Below are positions 8,840 to 46,516 of a stretch of DNA of 64,000 bases, in pieces. The stretch's first letter is position 1. Each line of letters starts with the position of its first letter. Where the stretch lies: the IMG/VR virus record IMGVR_UViG_2851955134_000009. One strand, 5' to 3'. A program made the translations under genes and the position numbers. The notes below the pieces were generated by a model. The model worked only from the letters and a program-made list of their open reading frames with translations. It did no database searches and had not been told where the DNA came from. The DNA comes from a virus (taxonomy: Duplodnaviria > Heunggongvirae > Uroviricota > Caudoviricetes).

Positions 8840-8918
8840 CGGTGATCTGAATGCGTTGCTGGATGAAACGGAGGCCGCCTGGGCGGTCTGTGCAGACAAA
8901 GTGGACATGATTATTTGA
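8682..8918 (+). CDS. lysC: o-spanin (Rz1/LysC-like), 3' end truncated by the Mu-like insertion
   Basis: Lipoprotein-like N-terminus (LLTLSGCG). The ORF stops at the TGA supplied by the first three bases of the inserted element. Joining the flanks restores 18 more codons (96 aa total) that overlap the R start. Confidence 0.65.
   Translation: MRTRIYATGLILLCLLTLSGCGNVRHSPEVQLTVSGCPRVTPCRLEQAAPRTNGDLNALLDETEAAWAVCADKVDMII
8910..8915. repeat. ATTATT direct repeat, left copy (putative target-site duplication)
   Basis: Identical hexamer directly abuts both termini of the Mu-like element (8910-8915 and 46511-46516). Confidence 0.6.
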
Positions 8919-8959
8919 TGCGCCGCGCGATAAATGCGCTCTATCTTGTGCGATAAATG
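8916..8959. repeat. Mu-like element terminal repeat, left-hand copy in window coordinates (putative transposase-binding sites)
   Basis: TGATGCGCCGCGCGATAAATG...GTGCGATAAATGG; matches the reverse complement of 46467-46510 at positions 1-4, 7, 9, 12, 14-21, 33-35 and 37-43. Confidence 0.55.
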
Positions 8960-8993
8960 GCATCCACGCGGCGTTTCATTATTTGAAAAAGAA

Positions 8994-9566
8994 TTACATT
9001 TCAGGTTCCGTTATGACAGTCCCAACAGGGTGATAGCGGTAGATCGTTGACAGTCCAATATCATAGATAATTGCCAGCCGCTTTCTGTCATACCCTTTCT
9101 GGAGCAATCTTGCGATCTGCTCATGCTGCTCCTTCGTCAGTTTCGGGCGACGTCCTCCAACTCTCCCTTGTGCTCGCGCAGCAGCCAGTCCTGCCAGCGT
9201 GCGCTCAACTATCAGTTCACGCTCCATTTCTGCCAGTGCACCCATCATATGAAAAAAGAACCTTCCCATCGGAGTGCTGGTATCGATTGAATCCGTCAGA
9301 CTGCGAAAATTGACACCTTTTGCGCGTAGCTCTTCTGTGAGAGCAATGAGGTGTTTCATTCTTCTACCCAACCGATCCAGCTTCCAGACCACCAATGTAT
9401 CCCCTCTTTTAAGGCACTTTAAAGCGCGTTTCAGGCCTGGTCGTTCCGACTTGGTTCCGCTCATTTTGTCCTCAAAAATCTGTTCACATCCTGCGCACAT
9501 TAATGCATTGCGTTGCAAATCTGTGTTTTGGTCATTTGTTGACACACGTATGTAGCCAATCAGCAT
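8994..9566 (-). CDS. serine DNA invertase (Gin/Pin/Hin family)
   Basis: 190 aa from MLIGYIRVSTNDQ...; catalytic-serine N-terminal domain and C-terminal HTH typical of invertases. Start placed at the internal Met because the longer track ORF overlaps the fibre segment. Confidence 0.85.
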   Translation of the reverse strand: MLIGYIRVSTNDQNTDLQRNALMCAGCEQIFEDKMSGTKSERPGLKRALKCLKRGDTLVVWKLDRLGRRMKHLIALTEELRAKGVNFRSLTDSIDTSTPMGRFFFHMMGALAEMERELIVERTLAGLAAARAQGRVGGRRPKLTKEQHEQIARLLQKGYDRKRLAIIYDIGLSTIYRYHPVGTVITEPEM

Positions 9567-9622
9567 TAAAAATACTCCCTTTTGAGTGGTTAAAGTACTG
9601 AGATAATGTGAGGAGGATTTGA

Positions 9623-9648
9623 GAGATAAACGTTGGTTTGGGGGAAGG
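9623..9648. other. invertase crossover site (hix/gix-like), Mu-like cassette, invertase-proximal
   Basis: gagataaacgttggtttgggggaagg; core AAACCAACGTTT is shared with the sites at 11224, 50937 and 52762, and is inverted relative to 11224. Confidence 0.5.
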
Positions 9649-10099
9649 CTCTGCATTGCCTGTTGGTGTACCGGTTCCATGGCCCACCGCCACACCGCCA
9701 GCAGGCTGGTTACAGTGCAACGGAGCTACGTTCACCAAAGAACAATATCCTGTTCTGGCCAGAGTCTACCCGACCCTCCGTCTTCCCGATTTGCGCGGTG
9801 AGTTTATCCGTGGATGGGACGGTGGTCGCAAGGTTGATACCGGGCGTGCGCTACTTTCATTTCAGGAAGGGACTATCGTATCCGGTTTTGATGATAATGA
9901 TACCGGAGATATCAGTTCGCTCGGCTCTACACAATACGGATTTGGTGACGCTTTAACCTCTAATCAACTGGGGGTCATAAATGGCAAAAAGTGGATATTT
10001 GATGCATCCTCTAAAGGTGCACAAAGATATGACTGGTGGGCTTATGTATCAGCTCGCCCCCGCAATATCGCATTTAACTATATCGTGAGGGCGGCGTGA
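9638..10099 (+). CDS. alternative tail-fibre C-terminal (tip) segment, promoterless inverted cassette
   Basis: Begins with GEGSALPVGVPVPWPTATPPAGW, the same junction peptide found inside the fibre gene at 10720-12489; opposite orientation; ends NIAFNYIVRAA. Confidence 0.6.
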   Translation: MGEGSALPVGVPVPWPTATPPAGWLQCNGATFTKEQYPVLARVYPTLRLPDLRGEFIRGWDGGRKVDTGRALLSFQEGTIVSGFDDNDTGDISSLGSTQYGFGDALTSNQLGVINGKKWIFDASSKGAQRYDWWAYVSARPRNIAFNYIVRAA

Positions 10100-10105
10100 T
10101 ACCGT

Positions 10106-10720
10106 TCAGCCGGCAAGCGCCAGTGGCGCTTCCGGCCAGCTGATTTCAGGTGCCTTGCTGATATCCAGTGCGTTCAGCTCGTCGATATAATCCAGCACGG
10201 CGTTCAGTTTTGCCGTTTCTTCTGGTTTCAGACTGCGACCTGCCCGCAGTTTGAGGTTGATGAGGTCGATGGACTTCATCGCCTGATCCACCCGTTCCTG
10301 GCGTTGCAGTCTGGCAACCTCCAGCTCTGCGGCTCGCTGCCGTTCAGTATCGGTTACCCACGCCTCACCGTTCCAGGTATCCCATGGCGTGGCCGGCTGT
10401 TTTGTGGTGGTGTCCGCCGGGTAATCACCCGGCTGGGTAATCTGAACGGGAGTACCGTTCTCCGTGCTGTATACCGTCTCGCCGCGGTGATCAGGCACAT
10501 GTTCCCACCCGTTCAGCGTGGCAGTCCGGCAAACCACGTAACCCGAAATTGCCTCCGGCGGTGCATCGGCGCACGAATGTGCCGGAGTACCCACCCCAAG
10601 GGCGAGATACTCCACAGAGGATGAGGTGTATTCCCGGGTTTCCTCGTCATAGTGATATACAGTGATATCGCCCGCTACAGTGGCGATACCGTTTTCATCC
10701 AGAACTGCAGTGTTACTCAT
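10106..10720 (-). CDS. tail fibre assembly protein (chaperone)
   Basis: 204 aa immediately downstream of the fibre gene; homologous to the 200-aa protein at 51671-52273. Confidence 0.75.
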   Translation of the reverse strand: MSNTAVLDENGIATVAGDITVYHYDEETREYTSSSVEYLALGVGTPAHSCADAPPEAISGYVVCRTATLNGWEHVPDHRGETVYSTENGTPVQITQPGDYPADTTTKQPATPWDTWNGEAWVTDTERQRAAELEVARLQRQERVDQAMKSIDLINLKLRAGRSLKPEETAKLNAVLDYIDELNALDISKAPEISWPEAPLALAG

Positions 10721-12489
10721 TAAACTGCCCTCACAATGTAATTAAGTGCAATGCTACGGGGTCTGACAGTGATACCCTTCGCATACCCGCTTCTGATAGA
10801 GGTCAGAATAGTAGCCTGCATACCATTGTCTGACATTGCCACGACAGGATCGCTGAATGTTGTCCCGTCCGGCATTTTAAAGCTGCCCTCACGAAGGTCT
10901 GTAATGGAATCTTCATTGTTGAATCCCATGCCGACTATCCCCGAGGTTCCCGTAGTGTCCTGGTTATAATAATCCAGCATTGCTGTTCTTAACAGCGTTG
11001 CCCCTTGTGCGGACAGCAACTTACGTCCTGTATCAACTTTGCGCCCGTCGTCCCATCCACGGATAAACTCACCGCGCAAATCGGGAAGACGGAGGGTCGG
11101 GTAGGCTCTGGCCAGAACAGGATATTGTTCTTTTGTAAAGGCGCGCCCGTCGCACTTTAACCAGCCTGCTGGCGGTGTGGCGGTGGGCCACGGAACAGGC
11201 ACACCAACGGGTAGCGCCGAGCCTTCTCCTAAACCAAGGTAATTGAGGACATCTTTTATACTGCCCTTAGCGATAATAGCGCGACCAATAGCTGTAAGGG
11301 TTGCCAGCGCTGCGCGGTCTGCTCCGGTAAAATAAGGCAACCGATCTGCTGCAGTGGCAAGTCCTGCCAGAGCAGTGAGCGTGGCATCTGCCGGTTGTTT
11401 TCCGTTTGCCAGATCGTATGCAGCCTTGACCGCTTTCGGTGTGGCGGCCAGTATTTCAGACGTGCTGTTGATGGCACTGCTCAGTTGTACGGTGCCTTTT
11501 GCCGTCAGCGAGGCCGCAGGCACTCCCGTTATCTGACTCCACGGGTGAGTGTGGCTGGCAGGCGCCTTGCCGGCTGCCAGGTCGTATGCAGCCTTGACCG
11601 CTTTCGGTGTGGCGGCCAGCGTTTCAGACGTGCTGTTGATGGCACTGCTCAGTTGTACGATCCCTTTACGGGTCGTTGTTGCATCCTGGGCTGTGTATTT
11701 TCCCCGGGCCAGATCATACGCGATTTTCACAGCCTTCGGCGTGGCAGCCTCAGTTTCTGATTGACTGTCCGTGGCGCTGCTCAGTTGTACGGTGCCTTTT
11801 GCCGTCAGTGAAGCCGCAGGCACTCCCGTTATCTGACTCCACGGGTGAGTGTGGCTGGCAGGCGCCTTGCCGGCTGCCAGGTCGTATGCAGCCTTGACCG
11901 CTTTCGGTGTGGCGGCCAGCGTTTCAGACGTGCTGTTGATGGCACTGCTCAGTTGTACGATCCCTTTACGGGTCGTTGTTGCATCCTGGGCTGTGTATTT
12001 TCCCCGGGCCAGATCATACGCGATTTTCACAGCCTTCGGCGTGGCAGCCTCAGTTTCTGATTGACTGTCCGTGGCGCTGCTCAGTTGTACGGTGCCTTTT
12101 GCCGTCAGTGAAGCCGCAGGCACTCCCGTTATCTGACTCCACGGGTGAGTGTGGCTGGCAGGCGCCTTGCCGGCTGCCAGGTCGTATGCAGCCTTGACCG
12201 CTTTTGGTGTGGCGGCCAGCGTTTCAGAGGTGCTGTTGGTGGCACTGCTCAGTTGGGTGAACCCCTTAGCTGTCAGTGTCGCGTCCGGGTGGTTACGGGA
12301 ACGTACGTGTTCAGCCAGTGACTGTGCGGCTTCCTCCGTTTTCTTCTTCAGCCATTTCGTCCTGTTTGCCAGTTGCCGGGGGGCTCGATTTGATATCCCG
12401 TCTGCACCACCCAGAACCGGATCTGATGTCTCCAGTTGATAGATATTTTCTTCCCACTTTTCTGTTTCATTCAGGTTTCCCATAATCAA
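10720..12489 (-). CDS. tail fibre protein with internal tandem repeats
   Basis: 589 aa; Ala/Thr-rich repeats of about 100 aa; C-terminal tip segment begins at the crossover junction (LGLGEGSALPVGVPVPWP). Confidence 0.8.
   Translation of the reverse strand: MIMGNLNETEKWEENIYQLETSDPVLGGADGISNRAPRQLANRTKWLKKKTEEAAQSLAEHVRSRNHPDATLTAKGFTQLSSATNSTSETLAATPKAVKAAYDLAAGKAPASHTHPWSQITGVPAASLTAKGTVQLSSATDSQSETEAATPKAVKIAYDLARGKYTAQDATTTRKGIVQLSSAINSTSETLAATPKAVKAAYDLAAGKAPASHTHPWSQITGVPAASLTAKGTVQLSSATDSQSETEAATPKAVKIAYDLARGKYTAQDATTTRKGIVQLSSAINSTSETLAATPKAVKAAYDLAAGKAPASHTHPWSQITGVPAASLTAKGTVQLSSAINSTSEILAATPKAVKAAYDLANGKQPADATLTALAGLATAADRLPYFTGADRAALATLTAIGRAIIAKGSIKDVLNYLGLGEGSALPVGVPVPWPTATPPAGWLKCDGRAFTKEQYPVLARAYPTLRLPDLRGEFIRGWDDGRKVDTGRKLLSAQGATLLRTAMLDYYNQDTTGTSGIVGMGFNNEDSITDLREGSFKMPDGTTFSDPVVAMSDNGMQATILTSIRSGYAKGITVRPRSIALNYIVRAV
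11224..11249. other. invertase crossover site (hix/gix-like) inside the Mu-like fibre gene
   Basis: ttctcctaaaccaaggtaattgagga, at the constant/variable junction of the fibre protein. Confidence 0.5.
11521..12120. repeat. two identical 300-bp tandem copies within the tail-fibre gene (diverged partial copies flank)
   Basis: Sequence from 11521 onward is identical to that from 11821 onward; a third, diverged copy starts at 12121; in frame (100 aa per unit). Confidence 0.8.
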
Positions 12490-13076
12490 CTGCTCCCGTG
12501 GTTATAACTGCCATCATGGATGGCGGTATTGTTATAGCGAATGGCCACAGACTGATACTCCAGGCTGGCCAGATGGCAGCGGGCCGGTGCAAATGCAGCC
12601 AGCGTCTGACGCAGCATCGCGGCCTGATCGTTAGTAATGGGCTGTTTCAGAATAACGCGATAAACTGCCCAGGCGGCTGCATCTCCATGAACAAACAGTC
12701 CGTTATAGCTGCGATTGCCGTCGTAACTGAGACGACCTGTGCCTTCAATCAGATCCACTTCACCAAAGCCAAAACGGCGGATAACTTCCCGGATTGACCA
12801 CGGCGTCCCTTTATACCGGTGCAGTTCGATGGCTGCTTTTATAAGCATGCGGCGAACATCGTCCGATTCCGCCAGCTCCCAGCCATCGCCAGACAGTGAG
12901 AACTGCTCGCCCAGCCATGGCAGCGCGGAACTGTCGACGATATCGACGAGAAAGACCATCAGTACGCTCAGGTCGATGTTATCCAGCCGTCCTGCCAGTC
13001 TTCCCAGCGTCCTGAGACTGATATCACCCTCAAGCGGTGGCGGGAGTTGTAATGGCTCAGTCATCAGACACTCCAC
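12486..13076 (-). CDS. baseplate protein (P2 gpI-like)
   Basis: 196 aa between baseplate J and the tail fibre gene, as in P2-type baseplate modules. Confidence 0.65.
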   Translation of the reverse strand: MECLMTEPLQLPPPLEGDISLRTLGRLAGRLDNIDLSVLMVFLVDIVDSSALPWLGEQFSLSGDGWELAESDDVRRMLIKAAIELHRYKGTPWSIREVIRRFGFGEVDLIEGTGRLSYDGNRSYNGLFVHGDAAAWAVYRVILKQPITNDQAAMLRQTLAAFAPARCHLASLEYQSVAIRYNNTAIHDGSYNHGSS

Positions 13077-14160
13077 TCATGTTAAGAGTGATTGCCGTAC
13101 AGTTTGCCCATTCGTTTTCTGCCACCACCCGCAGTGCCGGTGTCACCAGTTCAACCTGGTACACCCCGGAAACGGACAATGCACTGATAATCTGGCTGGG
13201 GACAATATCACGCCCCAGCGTGGCGGCACGTGATGCCACCCAGTTCTGTATGGCGCTGTTAGCGGCATCTTTTACAGACCTGGCATCCTGATCACGATAG
13301 ATCGTAATCCTGGCTTCAATGGTGTAATCCACCTTCACTGGTGTTTTAGCCCGCACTGTATCAGTGAGTGGCCTGACTTTCTCATCAGAGCAGAAACTCT
13401 CTACCAGCGTGAGAACACCGCCGTCCGGCAGACCGGTACTGAGCAGCGGATACAGATCTACGGTCCCGGGAACCGGGGAAAGCACAGCAACATCGACAAT
13501 GTTGGGATGGGCCTGCATGGCATGAAAGCGGTATGCGCCACGGCTTCCGGCATTGGTGAATGACTCCGGGGCCAGCCTGATACGCTCCCGGAGCCTGTCA
13601 TCGTCTTCCTGTTCTGAACCGCCGGAACTGGCCGTCAGATTGCTCACCAGCAGGTCGACGTTATCAATCTCATCGAGTAACTGACTGACCTGCGCAGGTT
13701 GCCAGCCGTTACCAGCGGTACCGGGTTCGGTACAGGTGGACGTGACATTGACCAGCAGCAATCCGGCCTTCAGTACCACATCTGTATCGGTGGCAAAAAT
13801 AACGCTGTCGGAAGCGCTGACGCGGGTGCCTGCCGGGATCAGCACATCAATGGCCAGTGCCTCATCTACGGAGAACTGGAGCGTGGTGGTGGCAGGCTGC
13901 GCGGCAAGACGGTATACACCGACCAGTTCACCGAGGTAATCAATCATCGGCTCACGGGCAAAGGCGACCAGATTCTGCTTTGCTGCCTCCTGTACCGCAA
14001 CCCTGACCAGCATTTCGCGATAGGCCCACAGATCAATCAGCAGACGTTCTGCCTGTGCCGGGTACAGCGTTTTGCCGGTATCCGCTTCATACTTCGCAAT
14101 CATTTCTGCCGTGATTTTGTCGGCATCGCGTTCAATAAAATCGGGTTCTGTCAGCGCCAT
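13057..14160 (-). CDS. baseplate protein J-like
   Basis: 367 aa, position between gpW-like and gpI-like genes. Confidence 0.75.
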   Translation of the reverse strand: MALTEPDFIERDADKITAEMIAKYEADTGKTLYPAQAERLLIDLWAYREMLVRVAVQEAAKQNLVAFAREPMIDYLGELVGVYRLAAQPATTTLQFSVDEALAIDVLIPAGTRVSASDSVIFATDTDVVLKAGLLLVNVTSTCTEPGTAGNGWQPAQVSQLLDEIDNVDLLVSNLTASSGGSEQEDDDRLRERIRLAPESFTNAGSRGAYRFHAMQAHPNIVDVAVLSPVPGTVDLYPLLSTGLPDGGVLTLVESFCSDEKVRPLTDTVRAKTPVKVDYTIEARITIYRDQDARSVKDAANSAIQNWVASRAATLGRDIVPSQIISALSVSGVYQVELVTPALRVVAENEWANCTAITLNMSGVSDD

Positions 14161-14498
14161 AGCAGCTCCTGAGTCCGGGTCTGTCCGTCTGAGCCTTTCC
14201 AGCTCACCCGGAGCGTAAGATGTTCGCCGTCGACGGCGGGTTTAACTGACATAAGCTGGCAGCGGGGCTCCCAGCGCCGGATGGCATCGACGGATTCGCG
14301 CACCACATGCGGAATGGCCCGGTCTACAGGCCAGTCGATATAAAGATGCAGATTGCTGCCGAACTCCGGGCGATGCGGGTCGCTGCCGCGGGGAGTCCGC
14401 AGGATAATTTGAATCGCCTGCCGGATATCATCCAGCCCCCGGACAATTTCGCCGGGAGCCTGCAGGGCTGGTTGCCAGAATACTGAGGTCGTTTTCAT
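14151..14498 (-). CDS. baseplate wedge protein (gpW/gp25-like)
   Basis: 115 aa, conserved position before J. Confidence 0.7.
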   Translation of the reverse strand: MKTTSVFWQPALQAPGEIVRGLDDIRQAIQIILRTPRGSDPHRPEFGSNLHLYIDWPVDRAIPHVVRESVDAIRRWEPRCQLMSVKPAVDGEHLTLRVSWKGSDGQTRTQELLWR

Positions 14499-14552
14499 GG
14501 GGGCAGTATTGCCCCCGTGCGGGAACGCTGATATTAAAGGCGTTTAAGAAGC

Positions 14553-15149
14553 TCAGTGGGAGTGGTGGCTGGAGTTTTCGCCATCAGACAGCATACTGCC
14601 CGTGGCATGGGCATTCCCTTTAATCTCGATATTGCCATGGATGGTCGCGGTAACACCTTTACCACCAGAACCCGCCATGCCTCCTTCGTAAATCAGCTTT
14701 CCCCTGACACGCAGATCTCCGGTAAGTTCGGTTTCCGGTGCGTCAATCGTGGCTTTCTGTGTTTTCAATACCACATCAGCACCACACTCAATGACAATAT
14801 GCTCAATGCCGCCCCGGATGGTCAGAGTGTGCGTCTTCCGGTTGTAGCTGTACTCTGCACCATCAGCAAACCGGGTTCCCCGGATATTTTTGTCACTGAA
14901 CGGTGGTTTATCGACGTCTGAATACACCGCGCCCAGAATAACACCATCCTCGCCGTTGGCATCGAGCAGCACCTCAACCTGCTCCCCCACGTCAGGGAGC
15001 CAGTAATCTTTGTTATCCTGGGTATTGCGCTGCAGCACGTTAAGCCAGTTTGTGCGCAGGTTATCGCATTCAGGCAGACGAACGCGGGCCTGAACCCTGT
15101 CGGCATCAACGGCACTGACCGTACCGACCTGACGAGTGACACCAGTCAT
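14553..15149 (-). CDS. baseplate assembly/spike protein (gpV-like)
   Basis: 198 aa, position preceding gpW-like gene. Confidence 0.7.
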   Translation of the reverse strand: MTGVTRQVGTVSAVDADRVQARVRLPECDNLRTNWLNVLQRNTQDNKDYWLPDVGEQVEVLLDANGEDGVILGAVYSDVDKPPFSDKNIRGTRFADGAEYSYNRKTHTLTIRGGIEHIVIECGADVVLKTQKATIDAPETELTGDLRVRGKLIYEGGMAGSGGKGVTATIHGNIEIKGNAHATGSMLSDGENSSHHSH

Positions 15150-16300
15150 TTTTTCTTCTCCTTAATCACCGTCGATGTACTGCCATCCGGGTGATAAACC
15201 GTGAGTTTCTGAGTTTTTTGTTTTTTCCCTCTTGTGACTGGCCCCCGTGCCACTTCCAGCTCTGTGGTGTAGCCGCTGTTACGGTCAAACGCATGGCGGG
15301 CAGTGGTTATGAGCCATGGCCCGGATAACTGCCCAAAACCCACCAGTTCAATTTTGTTGCCTGCTGTCAGTTGAGGTGTTCCCGTCAGCGTCAGGGAGCC
15401 GTTCTGCTGGTATTCGTTATGTCTGGCCAGTGCTGAATCCGCTTTAATCCGGGCACTGTCCGGGTCGCTGACGCGGCTGTTAACTTTAAGTGAGTCAGCG
15501 CTGGTAACCTTACCACCTTTGAGCTTTTTGTCGCTTTCACGGGTACCACCATCAGCTTCGTAGACGATCAGTTTTTTACTGCTGCTTTTCTGGTGTTTTA
15601 CCTTTGCAGATTTATAGACCCGGTTGATGGTGTCACGCAGGGAAAAGCGGGCCACATCCTGCGGTTTTAACTGCCTGACCGGCTCCTGACTGCGCAGTGT
15701 GGCCAGATGAGAAAAAATCAGCTGGTCACTGACCACTTTCACTGCATAACCATACTCGCTGGCCAGCCGGCGCAGAAAACCCACGTCGGTTTCAGCATAC
15801 TGGGTCACCCGGTCGATTCTGATGGACTCAATGCTGCCCACCAGTTTCAGTCGGTGCTTTCTGGCAATCCGCCCCGCAACAGCTGCCAGCGTGGTGTTCT
15901 CAAAACCACGACTGGTTTTAGTCCGCAGAGCACTGTTAACCGAGGTGGCCACCCCACGGATAGAAACAACGGAAGCGGGCGAACTCACTTCGATCTCGTC
16001 TATAGAGAACGTACCGCAGGACAGCAGCTTCTCGCCCTGATAGCCCATTTTCAGCGTCAGCGTGTCACCCTTGCCCGGATACCACTTATCCAGCCAGCGG
16101 CCATCGGTGTCGTCCAGCTCCACCTCAATGGTATCGGACTCATTTTTGATGTTATCGCTCCAGGTCACACGGGTGACATAAGGCGCGATATCAGAGGTGA
16201 TGTTTTTCTGCAGATACCACAGAGTGAACACCGGTGTCAGCACATCGCTGACGCTGGTTAACGCTGATGTGACTTGCGCAGTGCTGTTTATCTCAGCCAT
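15146..16300 (-). CDS. tail protein D-like
   Basis: 384 aa following the X-like and U-like genes, as in P2 T-U-D order. Confidence 0.7.
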   Translation of the reverse strand: MAEINSTAQVTSALTSVSDVLTPVFTLWYLQKNITSDIAPYVTRVTWSDNIKNESDTIEVELDDTDGRWLDKWYPGKGDTLTLKMGYQGEKLLSCGTFSIDEIEVSSPASVVSIRGVATSVNSALRTKTSRGFENTTLAAVAGRIARKHRLKLVGSIESIRIDRVTQYAETDVGFLRRLASEYGYAVKVVSDQLIFSHLATLRSQEPVRQLKPQDVARFSLRDTINRVYKSAKVKHQKSSSKKLIVYEADGGTRESDKKLKGGKVTSADSLKVNSRVSDPDSARIKADSALARHNEYQQNGSLTLTGTPQLTAGNKIELVGFGQLSGPWLITTARHAFDRNSGYTTELEVARGPVTRGKKQKTQKLTVYHPDGSTSTVIKEKKK

Positions 16301-16503
16301 GGGGCAATATCCTCTTCTGTACGGGCTTCTTCAGCCTCAATCACCGGGATCAGTAACAACAGCCCGGAGGGCAGCACCGGCGTGATGGCCACGTGCGGAT
16401 TGGCGGCAATAATCCGGGGATAGCCCAGCGGGTCACCGTAGTACTGCCATGCCAGCGAATCCCAGCGCTCTCCGTCACGGGTAACATGTTCAAGAAACAT
16501 CAC
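16288..16503 (-). CDS. tail protein X-like (LysM-like small tail protein)
   Basis: 71 aa between the U-like and D-like genes. Confidence 0.55.
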   Translation of the reverse strand: MMFLEHVTRDGERWDSLAWQYYGDPLGYPRIIAANPHVAITPVLPSGLLLLIPVIEAEEARTEEDIAPWLR

Positions 16504-17384
16504 ACACTCCTCGTCAGTATTCTGGCGGCCATTGCACTTAATCCCGGAGACATGCGGTTGAATGCTGTGCTGGCGGCGTTAAGCTGCCCGGAAACGGTAT
16601 CCAGAGCACCTGCAATATTTCTTTTGTCCACACCACTCAGCGCAGACTGTGCCTGCTGTACATACGTGGCTGCTTCGCTGGCTGTTCTGGCCAGACTGAT
16701 GGCATCGGGCATGGATTCAGAGAGTGCGTTAAACGCCGGAACACTTTTCCCCAGAGCCCCGGAGATATTACCCAGTCCGCTCATCAGCCCCGGCACACGG
16801 GTCAGTGCGACAACGGGGTTATCCTTCATTTTCTGTGTCACCCGAACGGCGCTGATAGTGGTCTGGAGTACAGACTGCGCCTGTTTCGCATAGTTGACGC
16901 CGTTGCGGATGAACTGCGCCACCCCTGAAGGTGAAGGAATGGCACCGGAGACCGCCCCGACACCCGGGAGCTTCGTGCGTATTGCCGGTGGTTGCAGAGG
17001 ATTTTTCGGATCACCGGTGTATTCCCGGAGAGACACGGTGGCACTGACAGCCAGCACGTTACCGGTGCTGTCTGTCTGCTCGCTGGTTGCGGTCACATCG
17101 GTAATCACGAACCAGCCACGATAGTCACCGTTGCCGAAGACCAGCGCCAGTGCCTGATGGGCTTTCATGGTTGTTCGCAGTCTCGCCAGCTCCACATCGG
17201 GTGCACAATAATGCTGATGGAAGACCAGACTTATCTGGATTTCGTCCAGCCTGTCGCCGACGAACTGCAGGCCAGGCTTACCCCCGATGCGGGCATGCTC
17301 CGCATAATCGACGCCGAACGTGGCCTCGAAGCCGTCCCAGTAGGTAATCAGATCAAACTCAATATCACCCAGTACGGCAAACAT
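16500..17384 (-). CDS. tail protein with gpU-like N-terminal domain and Ala/Ser-rich extension
   Basis: N-terminus MFAVLGDIEFDL resembles the P2-like U protein in this window (MMMVLGLYVFML); follows the tape measure gene. Confidence 0.55.
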   Translation of the reverse strand: MFAVLGDIEFDLITYWDGFEATFGVDYAEHARIGGKPGLQFVGDRLDEIQISLVFHQHYCAPDVELARLRTTMKAHQALALVFGNGDYRGWFVITDVTATSEQTDSTGNVLAVSATVSLREYTGDPKNPLQPPAIRTKLPGVGAVSGAIPSPSGVAQFIRNGVNYAKQAQSVLQTTISAVRVTQKMKDNPVVALTRVPGLMSGLGNISGALGKSVPAFNALSESMPDAISLARTASEAATYVQQAQSALSGVDKRNIAGALDTVSGQLNAASTAFNRMSPGLSAMAARILTRSV

Positions 17385-20335
17385 CAGCGGTACTCCTTAC
17401 GTTGTTTCTGAGCCAGCAGACGCTCCAGCATTTTTTCCAGCTCATGCAGACTCATATTCAGGGCACCAGTCAGTCCTGCAGGCGCTGTGGTTTCCCTGCC
17501 ATTGAGGAAAAACTGAGGATTAAAGCTGACCTGGATACCACCAGACGTTCCACCGCCGGTTGCAGCTGCACCACGGCCTGAATATCCGGCAGCCAGGATT
17601 TCAGGCGAGGGGATACGGGGAACATCCGGTGTCATCTCATTTGCCAGACGTTGACCTGGTAAAGTCGATGCCCGGGTGGAGATCGGAATAGCGGGCATGG
17701 AAGACAAACTATTGATTACGGATCCGATCGCATTTTTAGCAGACGACATAAACCCGTTGATATCGGGCAACGGCATACTGAAGCGAACACCTGAAGTGTT
17801 ATCCCGTATTTCTGGCCCCTGAATGCTCACGGGCATTCTGGGGAGCAGTTCACTGGCCATTCGCTGCCCGGCCAGAGCTGCAATCGGAGTGCTCCGCTGC
17901 AGGCCAATGGCGGCCCCCTGCGCGATATTGTCACCAAAGCCCATAAACACGCGGCTCGGCGAATGAATACCCAGCTTTTCACTGAACCAGCCACTGATGC
18001 TGTCACCCATTCCGGTTACACTGGATTTGAGCGACTCCCATTTGTTTTTGATACCGTTAATCAGACCGTCGACAAGATGGCCACCGAAGTCGGTGAACTT
18101 TGCCGGCAGATCAACACCAAGATATTTCAGCGCAGCTGCAAAGGCTTTATAGAGCAGACCTGCCGGCGACCAGTTAATCAGCAGCTTACCAGTTCCCGCG
18201 ATACCGCCGTTAAAGGCCTCCTGAATGTCAGACCAGCACTGTTTAAACCAGCTACTGATGCTGTCACCCATTCCGGTTACACTGGATTTGAGCGACCCCC
18301 ATTTGTTTTTGATACCGTTAATCAGACCGTCGACAAGATGGCCACCGAAGTCGGTGAACTTTGCCGGCAGAGCAACGCCGAAATATTTCAGCGCAGCCGC
18401 AAAGGCTTTATAGAGCAGCCCTGCCGGCGACCAGTTAATCAGCAGCTTACCAGTTCCCGCGATACCGCCGTTAAAGGCTTCCTGAATGTCAGCCCAGCGC
18501 TGTTTAAACCAGCCACTGACTGTCCCCCAGTTGCGGTAGATAAGGTAAGCTGCTGCCGCGACAGCGGTGATAACGAGACCGATGGGATTCATCATCAGCG
18601 CTCGCCCAATCCAGAGAACGGCACGTGCAGCGCTCATAAAACCGCGAACGAGGCTGCCCGCCAGAACTTTGCTGAGTTTCAGTCCTCCGCTGGTCAGTCG
18701 GCTAAATCCAGTGACAAGCCAGCGTAATTTGCCACCTTCTCCTAGTGCGGTAGTCAGTCGATGCCAGTTGGTCCGGAGTAAAACAGCAGTTTTCCAGACG
18801 TTCACAAAGGGGGAAATAAGGAGATTCAGCCCCAGTTTGAGACCAACAGTCGCTATCTTAATCGCAAGGAGCGCACTGATGAGCTTAAAAGCCCCACTGA
18901 CAAATTGCGGGTGAGTCGCCACCCAGTGTTTTGCCCCCTGAATGAGTGGGATCAGCTCCTGAGTCAGAGAAATAAAAGAGGGGGCGAGCTGATCGCCCAG
19001 CGTAATAGCCAGATCGCGACTGCTGACCATAAGCGCTTTAGTGGCTTCAAGGGGAGATTTCAGCCGCTGATCGTAAGCACTGGCAAGCAAATCGTTATCC
19101 GCAGCCCTGAGAGCACCGGCACGGATCTCGCGATATCTGTCCATGTTGGCCAGCATCGGGCGGATAAATGCCATGACCTGCATATCCGCGAACATATCGC
19201 CCAGACCAAAGTTTTTCGCCAGAGCCTGAAGTGCCTCATCTCTTGCCGTATCATTCTTTATTTTCATGGCGGATTTGAAGCCGGCCAGCGCTTCGGGGCT
19301 TTTGGCATTGAGGTAACGTTCTATAACACTCAACATCCCTTCAATCGGAGAGATCCCCGCAGCCTTATAACTCGCAACAGAACCCTGCAAATCAATACCC
19401 AGATCAGCAAACTGTTTCTGAGTATCGCGGGCAAAAATTTTGGTAAGAAAGTTTTTAAAATTATTGGCTGCTTCGTCGGTGGAGCCCGCACCGATTTTTG
19501 CTATCTGGAGACTGGCCCCGATTTCAGCAACAGCCTCTTTTCCACTGGCAATACCCGCCATCATTGGGGCCAGGGACTGCATCCACTTGACCTGATCCGG
19601 GATTTCAAATGACCCCTGGTCACCGGCATAAGCCATAATATTCTGGACGGCACTAAAATCTCTGGCCGCACCTTTCAGGGAGTTTTGCCAGACTGCGGCC
19701 ACTTTTGCCCAGTCCTGAGATGACGTGCGTGTTGCCGTTGCCGCGCGGGCAATATCCGGCATCAGAAAACCGATATCTGACAAGTTATCAATATTGTCGC
19801 TGATGAGCGAACCCACCGCCTCCTGCAGTTCATCCTGATACTGATTGTATTTTTGCGCCCAGCCTTTTATCTGTCCGGCAAGTGCATCCCGCGTTTTATT
19901 GTCATATTTTGCGGTGATCGACATATCAATCATTTTGTCCTGAAAAGACATGGACTGCTGAACGGCAGGGGAAACCGTATGATAAACAGTCTGTGCCATG
20001 CCATACGCTTCAATCCCCTGACCATACAGCGCCATGCGGTTAGCTTTCAGCGCATCACTGGTGGCTGATGCCGCTGACAGACGGCGCTGCTGGCGCTCAA
20101 TTTGCTCCATGGTGCGGCTTACCCGCAGCAGCTCGCTGTTGAGATGCTGCATCCGGGAAGAGCCCAGTTGACCATAACGTTCTGTTGCACGGGTTAAAGC
20201 GTTCTGACGTTCCTGCAGGCGGCGTGAGGTATCGCTCAGGGAATCAAGCGCACGGCGGGTACCGCTCATTGCAGAACGGAATGTGCTGCCAATCATCCCG
20301 CCGATAACAACGCCGACTGAAAACTGTCCCGACAT
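17384..20335 (-). CDS. tail tape measure protein
   Basis: 983 aa, largest tail gene, located after the chaperone pair; contains an internal tandem duplication. Confidence 0.8.
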   Translation of the reverse strand: MSGQFSVGVVIGGMIGSTFRSAMSGTRRALDSLSDTSRRLQERQNALTRATERYGQLGSSRMQHLNSELLRVSRTMEQIERQQRRLSAASATSDALKANRMALYGQGIEAYGMAQTVYHTVSPAVQQSMSFQDKMIDMSITAKYDNKTRDALAGQIKGWAQKYNQYQDELQEAVGSLISDNIDNLSDIGFLMPDIARAATATRTSSQDWAKVAAVWQNSLKGAARDFSAVQNIMAYAGDQGSFEIPDQVKWMQSLAPMMAGIASGKEAVAEIGASLQIAKIGAGSTDEAANNFKNFLTKIFARDTQKQFADLGIDLQGSVASYKAAGISPIEGMLSVIERYLNAKSPEALAGFKSAMKIKNDTARDEALQALAKNFGLGDMFADMQVMAFIRPMLANMDRYREIRAGALRAADNDLLASAYDQRLKSPLEATKALMVSSRDLAITLGDQLAPSFISLTQELIPLIQGAKHWVATHPQFVSGAFKLISALLAIKIATVGLKLGLNLLISPFVNVWKTAVLLRTNWHRLTTALGEGGKLRWLVTGFSRLTSGGLKLSKVLAGSLVRGFMSAARAVLWIGRALMMNPIGLVITAVAAAAYLIYRNWGTVSGWFKQRWADIQEAFNGGIAGTGKLLINWSPAGLLYKAFAAALKYFGVALPAKFTDFGGHLVDGLINGIKNKWGSLKSSVTGMGDSISSWFKQCWSDIQEAFNGGIAGTGKLLINWSPAGLLYKAFAAALKYLGVDLPAKFTDFGGHLVDGLINGIKNKWESLKSSVTGMGDSISGWFSEKLGIHSPSRVFMGFGDNIAQGAAIGLQRSTPIAALAGQRMASELLPRMPVSIQGPEIRDNTSGVRFSMPLPDINGFMSSAKNAIGSVINSLSSMPAIPISTRASTLPGQRLANEMTPDVPRIPSPEILAAGYSGRGAAATGGGTSGGIQVSFNPQFFLNGRETTAPAGLTGALNMSLHELEKMLERLLAQKQRKEYR
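17985..18506. repeat. tandem duplication of about 261 bp inside the tape measure gene
   Basis: ctgatgctgtcacccattccggttacactggatttgagcga... occurs at 17994 and again at 18255; the encoded 87-aa units are near-identical. Confidence 0.6.
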
Positions 20336-21207: not shown

Positions 21208-21209
21208 CG

Positions 21210-24309: not shown

Positions 24310-24310
24310 C

Positions 24311-33782: not shown

Positions 33783-33784
33783 GA

Positions 33785-40384: not shown

Positions 40385-41551
40385 ATGCTGGTACTGAAGC
40401 AGCAACTGAAAGAGGCCCGTATTCCACAGGCGGTGGCGGCGAGAGCTGTCGATGTTTCTGAGGCCACGCTGGCCCAGATTGTGAATCATAACGCGTGGCC
40501 CCGCACCAGCCCCGGAGAAGTGCGCCGGCGTCTTGCGTCCTGGCTGGAAAGTCAGGGGATTGATACAACGAAGAGTTTTGATGCTGTACAGGGCGCGGCC
40601 ACGCCCCGTACAGCGGGTACCACAGATAAAACGAGCCTCAGTGAGGAAGAGAATATGTTACTCAAAAAACAGGTGTTATTTCCAGCAACCAAAAAAGCGT
40701 TTGGTCTTTTCCGTGACCCGTTCGCCGATGAAGCCATGCAGGGTTCTGATGATGTGTTCACCACCCCGGACATTCGCTACGTGCGTGAGGCGCTGTACCA
40801 GACAGCCCGTCATGGTGGGTTTATGGCCGTCATCGGTGAGTCCGGTGCGGGTAAATCCACGCTGCGCCGCGACCTGACTGAACGTATTAACCGCGAGAAT
40901 GCGCCGGTAATTGTTATCGAGCCATACATCATCGCTATGGAAGACAACGATGTGAAAGGGAAAACCCTGAAGGCAGCAGCTATTGCCGAAGCCATTATCA
41001 GTACCATCGCACCACTGGAAAGCATCAGACGCAGTCAGGACGCCCGCTTTCGCCAGTTGCATCGCGTCCTGAAAGACAGCAGCCAGGCGGGGTTCAGCCA
41101 CGTTCTGGTGATTGAGGAGGCCCACAGTCTGCCCATTCCGACACTGAAACACCTCAAACGCTTTTTTGAGCTGGAGTCCGGTTTCAAAAAACTGCTGTCC
41201 ATCGTGCTGATTGGCCAGCCGGAACTGGCGACAAAACTGTCTGAACGCAATATGGAAGTCCGTGAAGTCGTTCAGCGCTGTGAGGTGGTCGAACTTCTGC
41301 CTCTGGACAATAACCTTGAAGAATTTCTGACGTTCAAACTGCAACGGGCCGGTAAACAACTGACGGACATTATGGACGCCAGCGCAGTGGATGCCATACG
41401 TGCCCGCCTGAGCAATCCGGGAAGTCATCGTAAAAATATGGTCAGCCTGCTGTATCCGCTGGCCGTCAGTAACCTGGTAATAGCCGCCATGAATCTGGCC
41501 GCTGAAATCGGGGTTCCACAGGTCAACGCTGACGTTGTCAAAGGAGTTTAA
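40385..41551 (+). CDS. transposition ATPase (MuB/TniB-like AAA+)
   Basis: Walker A GESGAGKST, Walker B-like HVLVIEEAH; immediately downstream of the transposase. Confidence 0.65.
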   Translation: MLVLKQQLKEARIPQAVAARAVDVSEATLAQIVNHNAWPRTSPGEVRRRLASWLESQGIDTTKSFDAVQGAATPRTAGTTDKTSLSEEENMLLKKQVLFPATKKAFGLFRDPFADEAMQGSDDVFTTPDIRYVREALYQTARHGGFMAVIGESGAGKSTLRRDLTERINRENAPVIVIEPYIIAMEDNDVKGKTLKAAAIAEAIISTIAPLESIRRSQDARFRQLHRVLKDSSQAGFSHVLVIEEAHSLPIPTLKHLKRFFELESGFKKLLSIVLIGQPELATKLSERNMEVREVVQRCEVVELLPLDNNLEEFLTFKLQRAGKQLTDIMDASAVDAIRARLSNPGSHRKNMVSLLYPLAVSNLVIAAMNLAAEIGVPQVNADVVKGV

Positions 41552-41850: not shown

Positions 41851-42381
41851 ATGGCAAAAAGTACAAAAGGGGCAAAACGTATCAAGGCCGCAGCGGCACT
41901 CTGGGTACCAGGGACACGCGAAGAGGTCATTGAGGGAATCAGACTACTCGGTGACGCACAACGTGAACTGGTCAGGGCTGAAACAGAAATGAATGACGCC
42001 ATTGGCGATATCACCGCACGTTATGCCCCGCTCACCGAGAGCCTGAAAAAACGCATGGCCGAACTGCAGTCCGGTATCCAGACATGGTGTGAGGCGCACC
42101 GTGATGAACTGACCGGCAACGGGAAGGTGAAGTTCGCTAACCTTACCACCGGCGAGGTGCAGTGGCGAAACCGTCCGCCATCAGTCAGTATCCGTGGGGC
42201 GGATAATGTTATTGAATTACTGAGACGTCTGGGGCTTGAGCGCTTTATTCGTGTAAAAGAGGAAATAAATAAAGACGCTATCCTGAATGAAAAAGAGGCC
42301 GTGAAAAATATTCCCGGTATTTCCATTAAAAGCGACATTGAGGATTTTTCAATAATTCCTTTTGAGCAGGATGTGCAGTAA
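41851..42381 (+). CDS. Gam-like host-nuclease inhibitor protein
   Basis: 176 aa; position after the B-like gene as in Mu. Confidence 0.5.
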   Translation: MAKSTKGAKRIKAAAALWVPGTREEVIEGIRLLGDAQRELVRAETEMNDAIGDITARYAPLTESLKKRMAELQSGIQTWCEAHRDELTGNGKVKFANLTTGEVQWRNRPPSVSIRGADNVIELLRRLGLERFIRVKEEINKDAILNEKEAVKNIPGISIKSDIEDFSIIPFEQDVQ

Positions 42382-44375: not shown

Positions 44376-44590
44376 TGACTGCTGAATCTGTTGTATGTGC
44401 CCTGTTCTGGTATTGTTTTGTCGGTTGGTGTACTGCTGAACTGCACCGCCGTTCAGGGTTTTATTCACGTTACAGTGGTGCCGGTTACTGGATTAGCTGG
44501 TCGGTGATGTTCCTGTGCTGGCCTGTGGCATTTCCTTTATATGTCTATTATATCAGTGATGCAGGCAGAAGGAGCAACGATGATGACTAA
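44376..44590 (+). CDS. small membrane protein
   Basis: About 70 aa with two hydrophobic segments; overlaps the longer track ORF 44219-44590. Confidence 0.3.
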
Positions 44591-45032
44591 ACAACGTCTT
44601 ATCCAGCTTATCCATATTGCCCGTAATGAACTGGGTATGGATGAAGACACCTACCGCCAGATGTTACAGGGGCTGACCGGTAAAGCCTCAACCAAAGGAA
44701 TGGATACCACACAACTAAACTGCGTGCTGGAATCCATGAAAAAGAAAGGCTTTCGCGTTAAACCAGCCAGAAAAGCCAGCTCCGGTTTACCGCTGGATAA
44801 CCATCCGCAGTCCAGGAAAATTCGTGCGCTATGGCTTGAAATGGCTGCTGCCGGCATTGTTCGTGACCGTTCAGAAAATGCATTAGCGAGGTGGATCAAG
44901 CGGGAAACGGGCATCAGCGCCCTGCGCTGGCTCAGTACTGAACAGGCAGGCAGTGTTATTGAGAAACTGAAGAAGTGGCAGCACAGAGCTGCGGGAGTAA
45001 AACATGAGCGACCTGAATCAGTTTCGAAGTAA
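44580..45032 (+). CDS. GemA-like regulatory protein
   Basis: Start placed at MMTKQRLIQLIHIARNELGMDEDTYRQ; position immediately upstream of the Mor-like gene as in Mu. Confidence 0.55.
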   Translation: MMTKQRLIQLIHIARNELGMDEDTYRQMLQGLTGKASTKGMDTTQLNCVLESMKKKGFRVKPARKASSGLPLDNHPQSRKIRALWLEMAAAGIVRDRSENALARWIKRETGISALRWLSTEQAGSVIEKLKKWQHRAAGVKHERPESVSK

Positions 45033-45402
45033 AGGGCCGGAACTCCTGGTGGAACTGGCACAGCATACCTCTGAGACCGTTCGCGAGATTATTGATATTG
45101 AGCCCGCAATTGCCGACCAGATTGGTCAGGCCGTCGCGAACCGCATGATGCAGGTCTGGGGCGGGCAAAACGTTTATTTCCCGATGGGCATGGTATGGAA
45201 GGTCAGTCAGCGCGACCGGGAAATCTTCAGGGAGTTTAACGGACGTAACCACCATGAACTGGCCCGCAAATTTGGTGTTTCGCTTCAGTGGGTCTACAGC
45301 GTGGTTAAGCGGGTAAGAAAAGAAGAACTGGATCGGATGCAGGGCAGGTTGTTTGATGAAGATCTGCCAGAGGAGACGAAAGACGTTAACAAATCCAGAT
45401 AA
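45004..45402 (+). CDS. Mor/C-family transcriptional activator
   Basis: 132 aa; C-terminal HTH (HELARKFGVSLQWVYSVVKR) typical of Mor/C. Confidence 0.65.
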   Translation: MSDLNQFRSKGPELLVELAQHTSETVREIIDIEPAIADQIGQAVANRMMQVWGGQNVYFPMGMVWKVSQRDREIFREFNGRNHHELARKFGVSLQWVYSVVKRVRKEELDRMQGRLFDEDLPEETKDVNKSR

Positions 45403-45447
45403 TTCCTGCTTGTTAAAGTCCTTTCAAAAATCTCCTTATTGTATAAA

Positions 45448-45479
45448 AGCACGGTAGACCCCTTACCGTGCTTTTTTTA
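45448..45479 (+). terminator. rho-independent terminator after the Mor-like gene
   Basis: Stem agcacggta/taccgtgct with a 7-nt loop followed by a T7 run. Confidence 0.6.
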
Positions 45480-45516
45480 TGCTCTCTCTTTAGTATTCAG
45501 GATGCAGGGAGAAAAT

Positions 45517-46149
45517 ATGTTTGACGTTTCGTTGTTAAATCTGCCATGGGCAACACTGGTGACCCTGACCAGTGGCTATATTGGGTATTTTATTGCGAAT
45601 GTGGGACTGAAGGATCACCACAAGCCCATTGAGGTGACTTTTTCTTCGCTGATTTTTGGCCTGACAGCAATGATGGCTTACCAGGCTGTTATGTGGGCAG
45701 GTCTGAATGCCTGGCTGGCAACACCACCAGCACTTCTGTGTGCCGTTACATGCGGTGCGTGGTGGCGCAGGTACGGTCGCAAATGGATGTACAGATTACT
45801 GTGGAATAATGATATTTCATGGTCTGACGATACCAGCTCAGCATGGCAGGCAATGTTTGATCAAACAGGCTTCAGCGTTACCGAGGTCAGAGTGATTCTT
45901 CGCGATGGTTCCGGTATGATGTCACGGCTGCCAGGGAACTTTGAAGAGTGGCCTAACGGTCCGTTTACCCTGGGGAATAAAGGCGATATGGTTCTTTACG
46001 TCACGCACAGCAGCCCTTCAGGCAGTAACGAATGGGAAGAGTATAAAGGCGTGGTTGATAAGTACTGGGGAGCTCTGGCAACCTATATTCCAGCAGATCA
46101 GATTGCCAGAGTGGAGATCAGGCGCGTTCGTGCAACGAACGATGAATGA
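45517..46149 (+). CDS. membrane protein of unknown function at the element terminus
   Basis: Start placed at MFDVSLLNL; three to four N-terminal TM segments and a C-terminal soluble domain; isolated between a terminator and the element end. Confidence 0.4.
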   Translation: MFDVSLLNLPWATLVTLTSGYIGYFIANVGLKDHHKPIEVTFSSLIFGLTAMMAYQAVMWAGLNAWLATPPALLCAVTCGAWWRRYGRKWMYRLLWNNDISWSDDTSSAWQAMFDQTGFSVTEVRVILRDGSGMMSRLPGNFEEWPNGPFTLGNKGDMVLYVTHSSPSGSNEWEEYKGVVDKYWGALATYIPADQIARVEIRRVRATNDE

Positions 46150-46466
46150 TGTTTATTTTTTCCCTGGGGCAGGGGCTGCCGGCATAGTGGTTTTATTGGC
46201 AGAGGAAGACGATTCTCCTTTTCTACCGGAATCGCGCTCGAACGTCACGATGTGCTTGCTTTTGGGCTTTTCTGAGTAATCCAGGCTATCATGCTTATTG
46301 TTTTGAGTAGTCATTGGAATCATCCTTTTTGTTGCGGGTCATGTTTCAGCAAACTCGATTCTAAGTTGCCAGGAAGGATGATTTCAATGCCCGACTTATC
46401 TATCGTATAGCGGAAAAGAATTTCAGTTCTGTTCACCAGAACCCATGTTAACCCACTCCAATTCGT

Positions 46467-46510
46467 TATTTATCTCACGGATCCCCCTTCATTTATCTCA
46501 TGTCTGATCA
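46467..46510. repeat. Mu-like element terminal repeat, right-hand copy in window coordinates (putative transposase-binding sites)
   Basis: Reverse complement reads TGATCAGACATGAGATAAATG...GTGAGATAAATAA, matching the end at 8916. Confidence 0.55.
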
Positions 46511-46516
46511 ATTATT
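46511..46516. repeat. ATTATT direct repeat, right copy (putative target-site duplication)
   Basis: Identical to 8910-8915. Confidence 0.6.

Follow-up and report, generated by a model that had tools for sequence, protein, structure and literature searches.

The window considered here, i.e. the whole stretch of 64,000 nucleotides that was analysed, derives from the closed chromosome of Escherichia coli AR_0085 (NZ_CP029741.1); the RefSeq annotation of this record was used and junctions were read from its assembled sequence. It displays a P2-like prophage, located between rcdA and ybjL, which is interrupted by a second phage of 37,595 bp beginning with TGATG and ending with GATCA (Table 1). The left arm of the P2-like prophage comprises genes for portal Q, terminase P, scaffold O, capsid N, terminase M, L, X, holin, endolysin, LysB and a truncated LysC, while the right arm carries R, S, V, W, J, I, H, G, an invertible fibre cassette with its recombinase, FI, FII, E, T, U, D and ogr. 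With int, cI and replication gene A lying upstream, this arrangement matches the P2-like (Peduoviridae) gene order. The presence of P2-like genes on both sides of the insert, proposed in an earlier sequence-only reading, was thus confirmed by annotation and by the identity to Escherichia phage Cartapus. LysB was flagged as a partial pseudogene by RefSeq, yet its ORF is whole.

Table 1. Features of the interrupted P2-like prophage and of the inserted phage (positions in the window)
Feature	Position	Strand	Basis or remark
P2-like (Peduoviridae) left arm	1440-8915	+	RefSeq annotation; 96.9% identity to Escherichia phage Cartapus
LysB (i-spanin), intact, 142 aa	8411-8839	+	96% identical, gapless, to Cartapus LysB
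LysC (o-spanin), truncated, 78 aa	8682-8918	+	stop TGA made by the first bases of the insert
Target-site duplication, left copy ATTATT	8910-8915		single copy in uninterrupted phages
Complete BcepMu-type transposable prophage, 37,595 bp, TG...CA ends	8916-46510	-	collinear with BcepMu on minus strand
Terminus equivalent to BcepMu right end	8916-8958	+	TGATG, then GCGATAAAT repeats at 8927-8935 and 8950-8958
Hin/Gin-type serine invertase	8994-9566	-	Pfam Resolvase 8e-51 and HTH_7
G-segment-like invertible tail-fibre cassette	9630-11240		229-nt inverted repeats at 9630-9858 and 11012-11240
P2-type contractile tail module, tail fibre to sheath	10720-23158	-	annotation; 46-76% identity to BcepMu gp39-gp52
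Mu-type head module	23148-31771	-	Portal_Mu 1e-90; collinear with BcepMu gp27-gp38
Insert lysis cassette: holin, SLT transglycosylase, spanin-like protein	32408-34135	-	annotation; homologous to BcepMu gp21-gp23
Dam-type N6-adenine methylase	35472-36236	+	Pfam MethyltransfD12 6e-29
cI-type repressor	36353-36700	-	HTH_3; 37% identity to BcepMu gp17 repressor; PHROG repressor families
Cro/Ner-positioned HTH protein, first early gene, 62 aa	36794-36982	+	49% identity to BcepMu gp16; phrog_925
DDE transposase TnpA, rve core, Tn552/BcepMu type, 589 aa	38605-40374	+	Pfam rve; phrog_310 8e-147
AAA+ transposition ATPase TnpB, ExeA-like	40385-41551	+	Pfam AAA_22 4e-20; phrog_296 'DNA transposition protein'
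Gam host-nuclease inhibitor	41851-42381	+	Pfam Phage_Mu_Gam 1e-40
GemA	44583-45032	+	Pfam GemA 2e-40
Mor late activator	45004-45402	+	Pfam Mor 1e-43
Terminator-like hairpin, 13 pairs then T run, directly 3' of mor	45445-45475	+	sequence
Terminus equivalent to BcepMu left end	46468-46510	-	GAGATAAAT repeats at 46491-46499 and 46468-46476, closing ...GATCA
Target-site duplication, right copy ATTATT	46511-46516		read from sequence
P2-like right arm	46517-60698	+	annotation, PHROG; contiguous with left arm in Cartapus
R	46536-46967	+	PHROG families (R and S: tail terminator, tail completion)
S	46960-47406	+	PHROG families (R and S: tail terminator, tail completion)

The head module of the insert includes small and large terminase, a Mu-type portal, F and G proteins, protease/scaffold and capsid, and its cI-type repressor is divergent from the early operon. 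Neither pseudogene flags nor a tyrosine integrase were present among the insert genes in the RefSeq annotation. The inserted phage appears to be intact and autonomous.

Both termini are directly flanked by the hexamer ATTATT, as had been noticed before. Removal of the insert and one ATTATT copy in silico yielded the exact sequence of uninterrupted P2-like phages; in Cartapus, the empty site reads ...GTGGACATGATTATTGCGTGTCAGG... with one ATTATT, the match being base-exact. At least 12 E. coli genomes matched the reconstituted site (450 bp) with 100% identity, and the uninterrupted site was encountered (coverage of at least 80%) in 1016 of the 5426 complete E. coli genomes. The junction between lysC and the insert was found in a single one of these 5426, namely the source genome. 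Deletion of 8916-46516 also reproduced the predicted 96-aa o-spanin ORF, as against 78 aa in the interrupted state, with a restored stop at 46571-46573 that overlaps R (GTG start at 46536). This junction pattern is far beyond chance.

The left terminus, at 8916, reads TGATGCGCCGCGCGATAAATG, and the reverse complement of the other one, from 46510, reads TGATCAGACATGAGATAAATG. GATAAAT lies at offsets 14-20 and 37-43 from each end, and the paired GCGATAAAT repeats of the 8916 end are 23 bp apart. The longer motif GMGATAAAT occurred only four times in the 64 kb window (mean of 0.84 in shuffled sequence), always at insert-end positions, which bears out the second GATAAAT reported about 23 bp inward at both ends. 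The paired end repeats are presumed to be transposase-binding sites.

Phage Mu duplicates five bp of its target, and Mu proper carries its repressor at the left end with an inward-directed early operon (ner, A, B). In the insert, the early operon pointed outward to the 46510 end and the repressor was internal (36353-36700). The transposase was 68% identical to BcepMu gp09 over 98% of its length; by group, identities amounted to 68% for BcepMu/phiE255, 56% for B3-like phages and 98.5% for phage PhiKM. It yielded only rve above the Pfam cut-off and, used as query, matched no MuA chain among PDB sequences at E<=0.01; MuA or MuB domains were not found. TnpB displayed 59% identity to BcepMu gp08, and 36 of the 55 insert proteins were collinear with BcepMu. 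The size of 37,595 bp falls within the 36-39 kb of BcepMu/B3-type phages, whose inverted early region, with Mor and GemA adjoining one end, was also encountered, as were the rve transposase with adjacent ExeA-like ATPase, the TG...CA ends with subterminal repeats, the 6-bp duplication, the many unrelated insertion sites and the collinearity with BcepMu. Phage Mu proper (Muvirus) was rejected on the basis of the rve-only transposase, the 6-bp duplication and the outward early operon.

On the evidence of its predicted proteins, among them an rve transposase related to that of Tn552 and an ATPase resembling ExeA, the insert is of the BcepMu/B3 type, and TnpB is the functional analogue of MuB. Its duplication is six and not five bp long because its transposase is of this type and not MuA. 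Duplications of six bp and TG-CA ends are known from B3/Tn552-family transposable phages (PMC8705779), and 5'-TG...CA-3' termini with repeated subterminal sites from BcepMu/B3-type phages (PMC2628397, PMC8705779). The element had been called Mu-like, which holds as far as a transposable phage is meant but not for the MuA/MuB type, given the rve-only transposase and the ExeA-like ATPase. The assignment of a Ner protein had to be abandoned: the 62-aa product of 36794-36982 is homologous to BcepMu gp16 and gave no Ner-family Pfam match, only sub-threshold HTH ones.

Near-full-length relatives were present in 584 of the 5426 complete E. coli genomes. All eight copies examined displayed the same termini at different insertion sites, each with its own 6-bp duplication. 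Termini identical to those of the insert were located at other sites in seven other genomes, including tnaB, yeiB, yecR, kefF and a P2-like D/ogr region, with GTTATC, CTTTAT, ATTAGC, GTTATG, ACAGGA, ATCATA and ATTCCA as duplications; terminal repeats and duplication were hence both reproduced outside the present locus. In IMG/VR, 35 distinct flanks were found beside the insert termini, and the target hexamers across these flanks displayed no strong consensus. The suggestion that the element was recently mobile is plausible and was inferred from the perfect duplication, the lack of internal pseudogenes and a junction unique among 5426 genomes. Sibling elements 99.7% identical at other sites provide a further basis: a 25-kb piece of the insert matched the copy of strain FDN-4, at another site, at this identity in a single ungapped match.

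It is very likely that a BcepMu-type phage entered the 3' part of lysC of the resident P2-like prophage by DDE transposition, in agreement with the sequence-only reading, whose statements on the sequence were all reproduced; no sequence evidence against insertion by transposition was found. The phage would have infected, or transposed within, an ancestor of AR_0085 already carrying the P2-like prophage. By analogy with Mu and B3/Tn552-type transposases, the rve transposase would bind the repeat pairs of the two ends and cleave 3' of the terminal CA, the ExeA-like AAA+ ATPase would pick the target, the ends would be joined to target strands staggered by six bp, and gap filling by host repair would generate the ATTATT duplication.

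Other origins of this arrangement were weighed against the same data. The tail genes of the insert are P2-type, and its Hin-type invertible fibre cassette is 71-75% identical (DNA) to that of the host prophage and superficially resembles a duplicated module, so that the segment might be regarded as a native or anciently acquired module of the P2-like lineage. The probability of this is practically nil: the segment was absent from Cartapus and from the uninterrupted E. coli sites (the 1016 mentioned above), which are up to 100% identical, the junction exists in one genome only, and the same segment with the same ends resides in many unrelated host genes. The two related invertase cassettes of the region could also evoke site-specific or homologous recombination, mediated by the invertase or an integrase or occurring between related tail or invertase genes of the two prophages, and a preprint describes invertase-associated exchange involving P88-like/phiE255-like prophages in ST131 (10.1101/2022.05.07.487787). 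Such an origin is most improbable, as both junctions fall exactly at the TG and CA termini, distant from shared sequences, target DNA was duplicated over six bp, the insert has no tyrosine integrase, and insertion sites differ in eight out of eight copies. An assembly artefact joining two separate prophages, conceivable insofar as related tail genes can mislead assemblers, has an equally slight probability. A misjoin would not land exactly on the two ends of a transposon, nor would it leave a direct repeat of six bp that, once removed, gives back an ORF and base-for-base agreement with reference phages; moreover, the source record is a closed chromosome, and the independent genome of E. coli B771 displays a like nesting with its own duplication.

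Transposition into lysC would have deprived the o-spanin of its last 18 residues. Tail genes R and S were split from their operon, and the intervening 37.6 kb of DNA, which end in a small ORF on the opposite strand and include a terminator after mor, would disconnect them from the late operon upstream. The P2-like genome would have grown from ~35 kb to ~73 kb, above the capacity of a P2-type capsid, so that the host prophage is, from capsid capacity and gene order, very probably dead as a phage.

The insertion of one phage into another had been considered uncommon, but for this element it is not rare. In E. coli B771, a BcepMu-type copy lies beside P2-like gene D, in the same prophage type and at the same chromosomal site as in AR_0085; one further copy adjoins a lambdoid J gene; and three of the 35 distinct IMG/VR flanks are P2-like, and nested insertion occurs in three IMG/VR contigs. 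The same cases could be read as a sign that BcepMu-type phages prefer silent prophage DNA as target, or that the knock-out of a competitor was selected for, in which case the P2-like insertion would be no random hit. This is unlikely, since the IMG/VR sample over-represents viral flanks, the ranking of the E. coli matches followed the similarity of their flanks to the query, ordinary host genes make up most flanks and target hexamers lack a strong consensus; tolerance of insertions in dispensable prophage DNA suffices for a modest excess. The broader proposition, that BcepMu-type phages land in resident P2-like prophages above chance, through target preference or through a benefit of disabling a competitor, seemed slightly more doubtful still. 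In its first variant, silent, AT-rich or H-NS-bound prophage DNA would be favoured; in the second, lysis and tail genes would be lost while immunity and defence cargo are kept, to the benefit of the incoming phage or the host. If true, the AR_0085 and B771 insertions would be examples of phage-versus-phage insertional warfare.

Such an insertion is the normal behaviour of a common and already known phage family, and the present locus is a clean textbook example without novelty. A new biological question would arise only if the slight indication that P2-like prophages are hit repeatedly is borne out. The locus offers a clean natural case in which the transposition of a temperate phage has very probably inactivated another one, and for which ends, duplication and empty site are all documented. 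It also shows that the abundant E. coli 'phiE255-like' prophage (about a tenth of complete genomes) behaves as a BcepMu-type transposon duplicating six bp, with defined termini, which helps in delimiting such prophages. Prophage-calling software would report one 'intact' prophage of ~73 kb where there are actually two nested ones, the outer probably dead.

BcepMu and phiE255 are Burkholderia phages of genus Bcepmuvirus, and the reference for BcepMu is reportedly Summer et al. 2004 (J Mol Biol 340:49). The insert shares with both an inverted early region with mor and gemA adjoining one end, a Mu-type head and a P2-type tail and, with BcepMu, TG...CA ends that each carry two copies of G(A/C)GATA(A/T)(A/T)T at matching offsets, 23 bp apart. 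It differs from BcepMu by its enterobacterial host, its Gam and Dam methylase, ~1 kb of additional accessory genes that separate mor from the terminus and, where BcepMu has an acyltransferase at one end, an invertible fibre cassette of the Hin type. Escherichia phage PhiKM (PQ738613.1, filed under Bcepmuvirus) has 51 of the 55 proteins in common with the insert, mostly at 95-100% identity; it differs in the repressor (46% identity), small terminase, capsid and fibre tip, and its record is partial, without the ends. Neither PhiKM nor the E. coli 'phiE255-like' prophage records were located in lysC. Mu follows the same lifestyle as the insert in its general logic, with Gam, GemA, Mor, the Mu-type portal, proteins F and G, a fibre segment inverted by a Gin/Hin invertase, and insertion that is nearly random and leaves a short duplication, but differs in its MuA/MuB domains, 5-bp duplication, opposite early-operon orientation and Ner-family protein, which was not detected in the insert. 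Pseudomonas phage B3 and its relatives share the 6-bp duplication and TG-CA ends (PMC8705779) as well as the inverted early operon (PMC5977238), but are siphoviruses whereas the insert has a contractile P2-type tail; Tn552-related transposable phages including B3 are treated, according to its citation in PMC8705779, by Toussaint & Van Gijsegem 2018. Cartapus (Elveevirus, Peduoviridae), finally, is the uninterrupted counterpart of the host prophage: it has an intact lysC and no insert, and its 96.9% identity extends across L, X, holin, endolysin, lysB and lysC, running directly into R.

The window corresponds to positions 4175441-4239440 of chromosome NZ_CP029741.1 from Escherichia coli strain AR_0085, and all sequence features claimed by the sequence-only reading for a Mu-like prophage lodged in the lysis cassette of a P2-like prophage were reproduced there. 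The insert begins with TGATGCGCC... and finishes with ...GTCTGATCA, a GATAAAT motif occupying offsets 14-20 and 37-43 from each terminus. The 64 kb window held four instances of the longer motif GMGATAAAT, all at the four subterminal sites of the insert, against a mean of 0.84 in shuffled sequences. The left flank displayed 96.9 % identity to Escherichia phage Cartapus (Peduoviridae), in which lysC is continuous into gene R (...GTGGACATGATTATTGCGTGTCAGGAGCG...) with a single ATTATT. An empty site of 450 bp was rebuilt by joining the two flanks through a single ATTATT. At least 12 complete E. coli genomes match it end to end at 100 % identity, and at least 80 % of it is covered in 1016 out of 5426 genomes; interrupted junctions were encountered by the genome search in AR_0085 alone. 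As the segment is absent from the uninterrupted P2-like relatives compared at this site (Cartapus and the 1016 genomes), which display one ATTATT, and as the junction is unique to AR_0085, these 37,595 bp were inserted here, duplicating the target hexamer.

Features of the insert and of its junction with gene R (window coordinates)
Feature	Position	Remark
ATTATT direct repeat	8910-8915 and 46511-46516	copies on both sides of insert
Insert, start	8916	reads TGATGCGCCGCGCGATAAATG
Insert, other end	46510	reverse complement reads TGATCAGACATGAGATAAATG
Inverted repeats of insert cassette, 229 nt	9630-9858 and 11012-11240	
DDE transposase, 589 aa	38605-40374	rve core only; RefSeq annotation and Pfam
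ExeA-like AAA_22 ATPase	40385-41551	RefSeq annotation and Pfam
Gene R, GTG start	46536	preceded by AGGAG; start and ribosome-binding site kept

Both ends were examined for seven more copies, six taken from different E. coli genomes and one from strain B771. Their termini were identical in all seven and lay beside different flanks. Each copy interrupted a different locus (tnaB, yeiB, yecR, kefF and others), and the 6-bp direct repeats around it were specific to that copy (GTTATC, CTTTAT, ATTAGC, GTTATG, ACAGGA, ATCATA and ATTCCA). Two papers describe a 6-bp scar and TG-CA ends for phages with B3/Tn552-family transposases, against 5 bp for Mu (PMC8705779; PMC2628397). The top BLAST hits gave the impression of a preference for TTAT-like hexamers; this proved to be a ranking artefact, since flanks resembling the query rank higher in BLAST, and a scan of IMG/VR with the 22-bp left terminus uncovered 40 loci, whose flanks comprised 35 different sequences without a strong consensus at the target.

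The element was rather widespread, a 25-kb piece of it being covered to at least 80 % in 584 of the 5426 complete E. coli genomes. Over this piece, identity reached 99.7 % (FDN-4), 99.6 % (VTB96937v) and 99.2 % in the closest siblings, and the copies of FDN-4 and LR-31 occupied chromosomal sites other than that of AR_0085. RefSeq annotation placed no pseudogene flags inside the element. Taken together, the close siblings, the absence of flagged pseudogenes, the perfect duplication and a junction unique to AR_0085 support the view that an apparently intact phage inserted here fairly recently. The right-end and 25-kb queries each placed two matches in the AR_0085 record, as a second full copy would; the left-end query placed only one, and the extra right-end place is probably a remnant, 144 bp long, left by a related right end. 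This 144-bp stretch, which includes both transposase-site repeats (window 46357-46501; 3001-3144 in L062, a stretch with its own numbering), was encountered elsewhere at 89.7 % identity, being carried by many ColV-type APEC plasmids of ~190 kb and by some chromosomes. There it lay beside IS remnants and ended in a variant terminus (...CATTTATCTCATTGATGCA), which has the look of an isolated remnant from a related element.

Nesting of one phage in another, initially considered uncommon, turned out to be less unusual. Strain B771 harbored a member of the element family in a P2-like prophage of the same kind, itself at the same chromosomal site as in AR_0085; the insertion lay close to where gene D ends and had duplicated ATTCCA, and the reconstituted empty site aligned without gaps to window 60088-60681. 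Another copy was located directly beside a lambdoid J gene. Among the 35 different IMG/VR flanks, three had P2-like genes, from the portal, capsid and sheath regions, no further than about 0.1-0.5 kb from the junction. Because both samples are biased, IMG/VR retaining viral flanks and BLAST ranking favouring similar ones, these cases are read as recurrence, not preference. Insertions in dispensable prophage DNA should be better tolerated than those in host genes. A literature search for the nested arrangement or for 'nested prophage' returned nothing relevant.

The outer prophage is typical of Peduoviridae, extending from an integrase adjoining rcdA to ogr adjoining ybjL (~72.9 kb with the insert and ~35.3 kb without it). 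Disruption of lysC was confirmed, LysC being shortened from 96 to 78 residues with its terminal TGA contributed by the insert. Genes R and S were parted from the upstream late genes by the entire insert, within which a strong terminator-like hairpin follows mor. P2-type capsids have a capacity of roughly 33 kb. From this limit and the known structure of P2 operons, we infer that the outer prophage would no longer be able to make viable particles. RefSeq flagged lysB as an incomplete pseudogene (window 8411-8758); this was rejected, as the 142-aa ORF at 8411-8839 is whole and displays 96 % ungapped identity to Cartapus LysB. The flagging seems to be a by-product of how the interrupted overlap between lysB and lysC was annotated. 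An ATG at 46500, in the insert terminus, is in frame with R, and the longest mechanical ORF (46500-46967) is a transposon-end hybrid.

A variable hotspot of the P2-like prophage, by portal gene Q (window 1-1374, reaching upstream to 15864-18815 of L020, another separately numbered stretch) contained a low-GC (37 %) cluster of three genes, annotated in RefSeq as 'ABC-three component system' genes and a 634-aa ATPase; the latter matched Lamassu LmuB models (1e-42). Between the P2-like integrase and the cI repressor, outside the window (L020 6341-8017), lay a DUF4041 protein matching the PD-Lambda-1 defence model (2e-120), a second defence cargo of this prophage. Both nested phages carried Hin-type invertible tail-fibre cassettes (window 9630-11240 and 51259-53509); the two invertase/fibre regions shared 71-75 % DNA identity while lying ~40 kb apart on one chromosome, with oppositely oriented invertase segments. 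At or beyond the right edge of the window, the nitroreductase gene nfsA was annotated as frameshifted in AR_0085 (14084-14805 in stretch L019, record 4239424-4240145). Bacteria are known to become resistant to nitrofurans by losing nfsA.

According to RefSeq and Pfam, the insert also encodes Gam, GemA, Mor, a Mu-type portal, a Dam methylase and a Hin-type invertase, together with a complete head module and modules for a contractile tail and for lysis. The designation 'Mu-like' holds for a transposable phage and fails for Mu proper, three defining features of which differ: Pfam detected neither MuA nor MuB domains in the insert, the duplication is 6 bp long, and mor and gemA adjoin one terminus with the early operon directed outward, an 'inverted left end' that Mu lacks and that sets the group of the insert apart. 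PDB sequence searches with transposase and ATPase gave no informative relatives, and retrieved no MuA chain. Two accessory genes were located between the post-mor terminator and the terminus (window 45517-46314), where BcepMu has none. One encodes a 210-aa protein assigned to phrog_12870, a family of unknown function; the other, a 53-aa ORF, lies on the opposite strand. Neither matched Pfam or PADLOC.

All sequence-testable characters of BcepMu/B3-type transposable phages were found in the insert, and 'phiE255-like' or Bcepmuvirus prophages have already been reported routinely in E. coli (10.1101/2022.05.07.487787; PMC12629997); the nested insertion, although real and well resolved, is therefore one more case of biology already known, and its chief value is as a clear-cut example and as a warning to those who annotate prophages. 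The transposase of Escherichia phage PhiKM (filed under Bcepmuvirus) shared 98.5 % identity with that of the insert; the corresponding values were 92 % for a Klebsiella phage, 68 % for BcepMu and phiE255, and 56 % for Pseudomonas B3-like phages. BcepMu matched 36 of the 55 insert proteins with their order kept, and its termini (TGAAGCGCGGCGCGATATTTC...GCGCGATAAATTC) display the same layout of two repeats at equal offsets.
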